Shown here piece after piece: positions 1 through 229 of a stretch of DNA of 229 nt. How positions within the stretch are numbered: the first letter of the stretch is position 1; the number at the start of each line of letters is the position of its first letter. The translations under genes and the position numbers were made by a program. Under the pieces are notes generated by a model. It made no database searches and was not told the DNA's origin. It saw only the letters and a list, made by a program, of their open reading frames with translations. This DNA comes from Escherichia coli (GTDB lineage Bacteria; Pseudomonadota; Gammaproteobacteria; Enterobacterales; Enterobacteriaceae). The DNA lies in assembly GCF_003334385.1 (NCBI RefSeq), contig NZ_QOWN01000226.1, one strand, 5' to 3'.

Positions 1-32
1 TAGTCACAAAAAGAAGAAAGTCAAATAATCAA

Positions 33-62
33 ATTGTGCTTAACTGTTTACATCAGCACAAT
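33..62. repeat. Perfect 8-bp inverted repeat ATTGTGCT-N14-AGCACAAT; candidate operator or RNA stem-loop, function unknown
   Basis: Read directly: 33-40 ATTGTGCT is the exact reverse complement of 55-62 AGCACAAT, with a 14-nt spacer at 41-54. I estimate chance occurrence of such a perfect 8-mer pair within about 20 nt in a window this size at under 10%. The stem has only 3 G:C pairs of 8. Confidence 0.55.
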
Positions 63-65
63 CTG

Positions 66-229
66 ATGACCATTGAAGGACGCACTAAATTATTTTCAGC
101 AACCCCTCAGTCTACGAAAATTCTGTATTTGATAATTGTTTTATTTGCTCTATTTTTATGCAGCCATTCTGTTGCTTATAAAAAAGCACCACTATCCGCG
201 CCCTCATCTCAATATCTTTGTCGCCGGAT
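66..229 (+). CDS. Hypothetical small protein, N-terminal 54 codons, 3' end beyond the window; single hydrophobic segment (possible signal peptide or membrane anchor). Start is uncertain: the frame is open from position 3, so the gene may begin upstream of the window.
   Basis: Frame 3 has no stop across 3-229. Using the window base composition I estimate roughly a 1% chance per frame of 75 stop-free codons, an approximation. ATG at 66-68 translates as MTIEGRTKLFSATPQSTK-ILYLIIVLFALFLC-SHSVAYKKAPLSAPSSQYLCRR. Third-position GC is the lowest of the three codon positions (about 28% versus 41% and 46%), as expected for coding sequence in AT-rich DNA. Against: no Shine-Dalgarno motif in the 15 nt before the ATG, the ATG lies in a possible stem, and the hydrophobicity could simply reflect the T-rich tract at 121-180. 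Confidence 0.35.
   Translation, partial: MTIEGRTKLFSATPQSTKILYLIIVLFALFLCSHSVAYKKAPLSAPSSQYLCRR
112..229 (-). CDS. Alternative model (excludes the + strand CDS): C-terminal 38 codons of a hypothetical protein on the - strand, stop TAG at complement of 112-114
   Basis: Minus-strand frame is open from the window edge to TAG (complement of 112-114), translating as ...SGDKDIEMRARIVVLFYKQQNGCIKIEQIKQLSNTEFS*. First codon positions are purine-rich (about 63%) and the - strand is the purine-rich, G>C strand. The stop is followed about 50 nt later by the 33-62 hairpin and a T-rich tract. Against: third-position GC (about 42%) is not the lowest position, and a 38-codon open stretch is only weakly significant (roughly 4% by composition). 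Confidence 0.2.
   Translation of the reverse strand, partial: SGDKDIEMRARIVVLFYKQQNGCIKIEQIKQLSNTEFS

Follow-up and report, generated by a model that had tools for sequence, protein, structure and literature searches.

A seven-codon frame with paired cysteine codons in the tfa-eib gap of lambdoid Eib prophages is very probably coincidental

The mini-ORF MQPFCCL* is very probably, as comparison of its homologous copies indicates, a coincidental frame in the non-coding gap between tfa and eib of lambdoid Eib prophages, on the strand opposite to the local genes, and judged from sequence it is not an attenuation leader peptide. It lies in the window, by which we mean the whole 229-nucleotide stretch of DNA that was analyzed; the features of the window and its surroundings are collected in Table 1. 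The initial annotation had read the frame exactly (frame 2, ATG CAG CCA TTC TGT TGC TTA TAA) and, having weighed an attenuation leader peptide on account of the two adjacent Cys codons, had considered coincidence more likely. That judgment was supported, as the Cys pair was not preserved among copies, no conserved structure was found downstream and the mini-ORF runs antisense to all of its neighbors. Its statements that a Shine-Dalgarno (SD) motif was missing upstream and a terminator or antiterminator hairpin downstream were likewise borne out: the 25 nt 5' of the ATG (TAATTGTTTTATTTGCTCTATTTTT) are without an SD-like purine run, and positions 182 to 229 offer nothing beyond a weak hairpin at 194-229 that no T-run follows. 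The fold of window 130-229 on the + strand was not significant (z = -1.55).

The level expected by chance was assessed with 2000 dinucleotide-preserving shuffles of the window (G+C content, 36%). At least one ATG-initiated ORF of 3 to 30 codons with an adjacent pair of identical residues was present in 91% of the shuffles. A mini-ORF with Cys-Cys specifically, again among ATG-initiated ORFs of 3 to 30 codons, was present in 8%, a figure for which Cys had not been specified in advance as the doubled amino acid. The Cys-Cys mini-ORF is thus no more than chance gives.

The window is part of a gap of approximately 680 nt between the tail-fiber assembly gene (tfa, orf-191A, DUF4376) and eib, which encodes a YadA-like immunoglobulin-binding trimeric autotransporter (adhesin), in lambdoid Eib prophages such as P-EibA. 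The distance from window position 1 to the eib start codon was always 265 nt, in every annotated copy. The window was 99.6% identical to the chromosome of Escherichia coli SCU-104, 98.7% identical to prophage P-EibA (GenBank AF151091) and 90 to 97% identical to the induced phages PhiR5 and PhiR12. Of 5,426 complete E. coli genomes, only 27 carried it, with 71 occurrences in total (a median of 3 in each genome), every one of them chromosomal; it also matched 48 metagenome contigs, mostly from the human gut. A plasmid collection yielded no match to the window, and 100,044 species-representative genomes yielded no exact match to its 35-nt core. The gene order in loci L001, L002 and L003 was J, lom, tail fiber, tfa, window, eib, two small ORFs, a dinI-like gene and then chromosomal genes, and all genes from J through the two small ORFs are encoded on the window's minus strand. 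In the + direction, only minus-strand genes (tfa, tail fiber, lom and J) were annotated over a downstream distance of at least 5 kb. With all flanking genes on the opposite strand, the mini-ORF is left without a downstream gene or operon to regulate. A tRNA and tmRNA scan found none. In strain JNEC-KY203 (L018 2586-3283), an IS1 lies immediately beyond the tail-fiber assembly gene and replaces the tail-fiber gene neighborhood.

Table 1. Features, alleles and diversity (pi) in the window and the surrounding tfa-eib region
Feature	Position (window, unless a locus is named)	Strand	Count or value	Remark
Distal end of the nearly invariant block, continuing 265 nt to the eib start	1-128	-	pi about 0.01-0.02	
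U-rich tract UUCUUCUUUUU, directly 3' of the 19-71 hairpin	8-18	-		sequence read directly
eib-sense hairpin GGUCA-UCAGAUUGUGCU-(14-nt loop)-AGCACAAUUUGA-UUAUU-UGACU	19-71	-		
ATG-initiated frame, stop-free to the window end	66-229	+		not a gene; no SD, only self-hits
Diverging segment	111-193		pi ~0.09	
31-aa ORF MRARIVVLFYKQQNGCIKIEQIKQLSNTEFS, overlapping the mini-ORF	112-207	-		not conserved
First copy of exact 16-nt direct repeat TACGAAAATTCTGTAT	113-128	+		
Variable patch with two haplotypes, holding the mini-ORF	129-186		19/58 positions differ (33%)	including a 2-nt deletion
Small AT-rich hairpin containing the mini-ORF	146-188	+		ATG and TAA in the TTTTTAT/ATAAAAA arms
Mini-ORF MQPFCCL*	158-181	+		no SD; very probably a chance ORF; alleles compared across homologues
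MQPFCCL allele			30/64 copies	
MQSFCCL allele			4/64 copies	
MQLFFRL allele			29/64 copies	no Cys
Stop-loss allele (TAA>TCA)			1/64 copies	39 aa
ATCC microhomology at the 114-nt indel junction	194-197			window is the short form
+ strand terminator-like hairpins	L001 5265-5282, 5306-5327, 5390-5409; L019 1709-1735	+		
~400 nt from the eib start to window ~110			pi 0.01-0.02	
eib passenger-domain coding sequence			pi 0.4-0.6	

We aligned 18 copies of the region (from genomes, phages and IMG/VR) and tallied the alleles of the mini-ORF in 64 scorable copies, metagenome contigs included; all copies were at least 84% identical overall, which limits comparative power outside the variable patch. Haplotype B, which encodes MQLFFRL, differed from haplotype A at 7 of the 24 positions of the ORF (CAG>CAA, CCA>TTA, TGT>TTT, TGC>CGA and TTA>CTA). 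Three of these codon changes are nonsynonymous (P>L, C>F and C>R) and two are synonymous, a pattern that gives no hint of purifying selection on the mini-ORF. The two Cys codons were replaced by Phe-Arg in 29 of 64 copies (45%). The attenuation idea fails here on a ground that the initial annotation had itself named, preservation of the mini-ORF in homologues: the Cys pair was lost in 29 of the 64 copies and the stop codon in 1. Conservation upstream of eib was lowest in the patch that holds the mini-ORF; window 1-128 differed between the haplotypes at only 3 of 128 positions (2%). The mini-ORF thus sits in a spacer that diverges rapidly (window 129-229) and borders the nearly invariant block that precedes eib. 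Its start ATG and its stop were nevertheless retained in 63 of 64 copies, including those of the haplotype with seven substitutions between them, which could be read as selection for an ORF and thus as a point against a chance origin. For six specific positions to stay unchanged at approximately 30% divergence, the chance probability is approximately 0.1. Both codons sit in the conserved arms of an A/T inverted repeat (TTTTTAT/ATAAAAA), and it is by virtue of this placement in A/T-rich arms that they persist while the codons between them change freely.

That the mini-ORF should be a ribosome-sensing leader peptide, coupling the availability of Cys-tRNA to termination downstream on the + strand, is next to impossible. 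Besides the two adjacent Cys codons, what speaks for it is a good + strand terminator (GGGGAG-N8-CTCCCC-T6, at L019 1709-1735) that follows the ORF stop by approximately 35 nt in the long forms of the locus, with further + strand terminator-like hairpins beyond. The copies with this terminator, however, are exactly those that encode the Cys-less MQLFFRL, and the mini-ORF has no SD before it. Past the terminators the + strand enters the tail genes in antisense, where there is nothing to regulate. The sole nearby promoter-like site on the + strand (window 129-156) would place the transcription start within the ORF itself; haplotype B lacks the site, and sites of this kind occur at chance frequency. 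Folding through the downstream sequence, a check that the initial annotation had proposed, brought out no conserved structure 3' of the mini-ORF. No antiterminator alternative was seen, and no terminator/antiterminator pair involving the mini-ORF, in the folds of window 130-229, L001 5145-5345 and L019 1645-1790. In the short form (L001 5145-5345, + strand) the mini-ORF lay inside its own small and weak hairpin, and the terminator-like hairpins downstream folded independently; the long-form fold with the L019 terminator was not significant. Searched against Rfam 15 at permissive thresholds, the window and loci L013 and L017 gave only noise, with no hit near any gathering score. We know of no Cys leader-peptide attenuator in enterobacteria, and cysteine biosynthesis (the cys regulon) in E. 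coli is controlled by CysB. It is also highly unlikely that the A/T inverted repeat (TTTTTAT…ATAAAAA, 153-184) is itself functional and thereby conserves the ATG and the TAA, be it as curved or H-NS-bound DNA or as an eib-sense RNA hairpin that modulates eib expression. The two 7-nt arms were indeed kept in both haplotypes with the sequence between them diverging, and Eib expression is low by default and condition-dependent, varying with temperature, growth phase and static culture (PMC4352079, PMC5450701). A 7-bp A/T stem is nonetheless marginal, and its fold was not significant. The A-run copy is 2 nt shorter in haplotype B, the segment is wholly missing at a distant paralogue locus, and the repeat lies outside the 168 bp used for eibG complementation. 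In haplotype B, both the inner and the outer stem of the 146-188 hairpin were destroyed, without compensatory changes (z = -0.2).

An extremely slim prospect is that the window is a real or recently decayed protein gene of the + strand, read from the ATG at window 66, whose hydrophobic peptide product (…ILYLIIVLFALFLCSHSVAYKK…) brings a type I toxin to mind, with the mini-ORF as an out-of-frame by-product. The stop-free + run of 155 codons in the L001 gap (L001 4862-5326; window-relative -138 to 326) is the longest there; only 0.2% of shuffles contain one as long, and the run ends within a + strand terminator-like hairpin. Other forms keep 105 to 145 codons open with shifting frames, and the ATG at window 66 is placed in the 3' arm of a strong hairpin. 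Against a gene, this ATG was ATA in 14 of 64 copies and had no SD before it, the products ranged from 4 to 148 aa, the frame was broken by 2-nt and 11-nt indels and by a stop in haplotype B, and the polymorphisms within haplotype A were mostly nonsynonymous. PHROGs gave no match, and tblastn against phages and a search of 5.8 billion proteins returned only translations of this locus, without a Pfam domain; these self-matches were mostly partial calls on contigs of approximately 1 kb. The longest versions of the frame run through all four + strand terminator hairpins into tfa in antisense. Three coding candidates were rejected. A small hydrophobic protein resembling a type I toxin would lack its ATG in 14 of 64 copies, and in haplotype B a stop precedes the hydrophobic stretch. 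The 31-aa ORF of the minus strand becomes unrelated peptides of 16 to 27 aa in the long forms. All three, the + frame of 119 or 155 codons included, are interrupted by frame-shifting indels and have variable ends, no homologues and no purifying selection. By comparison of the copies, then, the window is non-coding, with the mini-ORF very probably a coincidental frame in it; open + frames are in excess, though for most copies only marginally so.

The window is the short form of a 114-nt indel, for which 41 of the 64 copies were long and 23 were short. Haplotype A was seen in long and in short forms and haplotype B in long forms only, so that the window is probably a deletion derivative that has lost one + strand terminator and the second copy of the direct repeat. 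In long forms, this second copy of TACGAAAATTCTGTAT lies 177 nt further on (L017 1790-1805), inside the 114-nt segment missing from the window. The two copies bracket the variable patch together with the greater part of the 114-nt segment, and the second one supplies both the loop and the inner stem in a perfect 9-bp palindrome (ATGCAATAC…GTATTGCAT). A mobile-element origin of the variable patch and the 114-nt segment was considered and rejected, since outside the eib loci of the same 27 genomes the unit did not occur. Some copies (L008-L011, L015 and L016) carry an 11-nt tandem duplication, ATGACCATTGA, after window position 65, beside the hairpin. Between the window and the tfa stop codon there are three to four + strand hairpins that resemble intrinsic terminators (3 found versus 0.6 expected), a stack that is kept in both haplotypes of its segment. 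At the distant paralogue TAA locus (L020/L021), the gap measures 374 nt and only the proximal ~145 nt are kept (73% identity), possibly together with 18 nt left over from the loop region of the window hairpin; window 129-229 had no counterpart there.

On the side of eib, we infer that the eib moron has window 1-128 as its upstream edge, and that the eib-sense hairpin and its U-tract there would probably stop transcription from the tail genes or insulate eib's own proximal promoter from them. The core inverted repeat of the hairpin, ATCAAATTGTGCT/AGCACAATCTGAT, occupies positions 28-40 and 55-67. Its folding energy was -19.1 kcal/mol (z = -3.66) in the eib sense versus -12.4 (z = -2.0) on the + strand, the eib-sense fold being the stronger through G·U pairing at two positions, which is possible in that orientation alone. 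Together, the hairpin and U-tract (8-71, minus strand) are terminator-like and essentially invariant among copies, and the 3' end of the hairpin lies about 280 nt upstream of the eib ATG. A consensus terminator scan did not call the 8-71 hairpin, whose stem is AU-rich and which has a 14-nt loop and an internal loop. We read the element as a putative terminator-like insulator or leader element that borders the eib moron on its upstream side. A deletion of eibG was successfully complemented from a multicopy plasmid with 168 bp of upstream sequence (bioRxiv 10.64898/2025.12.25.695649), and a promoter-like site, TTGAAC-17-GATAAT, occurs at L001 4782-4754 (minus strand), at consensus level but of a type found at chance frequency; both are consistent with eib having its own proximal promoter. 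The Eib literature that we searched gave no mapped promoter, terminator or transcription start site of the eib moron.

The 8-71 hairpin could alternatively act within a long eib leader, as a regulated attenuator or as an inverted repeat bound by a protein, and so be the cis target of activation by IbrAB, a reading that we regard as unlikely and under which the mini-ORF would still be incidental. Sandt, Hopper and Hill are said to have described in 2002 how IbrAB activators switch on otherwise silent eib genes. A CRP-like or other known operator was considered for the ATTGTGCT-N14-AGCACAAT repeat and provisionally rejected; the spacing of the repeat does not fit CRP. A second stem-loop is annotated in AF151091 upstream of eibA (GGAAAUUCCGAA/UUCGGAAUUUCC; z = -4.6), at L001 4840-4877 on the minus strand (window-relative -160 to -123). 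It is kept at the distant TAA paralogue locus (L020, about 2575-2628) with other arms, GAUAUU.CCUAAAAA/UUUUUAGGAAUAUC, and these compensatory arm changes suggest a functional RNA hairpin or an operator. Across L001 3459-5130 and the loci aligned with it, diversity was 0.4 to 0.6 in the passenger domain versus 0.01 to 0.02 in the signal-peptide region and the ~400 nt upstream, a contrast that resembles the outcome of swapping adhesin heads as cassettes within flanks that are conserved.

The result removes a false lead, as there is no cysteine-sensing leader peptide here, and this in itself matters little. The by-products are of modest value for the study of Eib adhesins, namely, that approximately 400 nt upstream are almost invariant and the eib passenger domains highly diverged. 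The invariant block, with its two strong eib-sense hairpins, may bear on the poorly understood regulation of eib (dependence on IbrAB, static culture and temperature).

The mini-ORF resembles the trpL, hisL, pheL, thrL, leuL and ilvL/ivbL leaders in being a very short ORF with two adjacent like codons. Unlike these ribosome-mediated attenuation leaders of amino-acid operons, it has no ribosome-binding site, no terminator/antiterminator pair and no biosynthetic operon downstream, is antisense to its neighbors, has its doubled codons replaced in 45% of copies and matches no Rfam leader. Membership of the attenuation leader class was rejected, every testable defining feature (ribosome-binding site, conserved codon run, terminator/antiterminator, same-strand operon and Rfam match) being absent. 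The eib-sense hairpin is like intrinsic (Rho-independent) terminators in that a stable stem (-19 kcal/mol) is followed by UUCUUCUUUUU, and it is unlike the consensus of that class in its AU-rich stem, 14-nt loop and internal loop. Lambdoid moron cassettes are extra genes (lom, bor and eib) in or after the tail region that have their own promoter and terminator. In L001, L002 and L003, eib agrees with them in position, as an accessory gene after the tail-fiber genes and near the prophage end, and the comparison of moron boundaries draws in part on the GenBank annotation of AF151091 (P-EibA). The window is like such cassettes in its placement between tfa and eib, its AT-richness, flanking hairpins and mosaic structure and its restriction to prophages. 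The invariant block, moreover, starts in the window and reaches eib, with the roles of the window elements put forward by inference. As a whole, the window fits the mosaic moron boundaries of lambdoid prophages.
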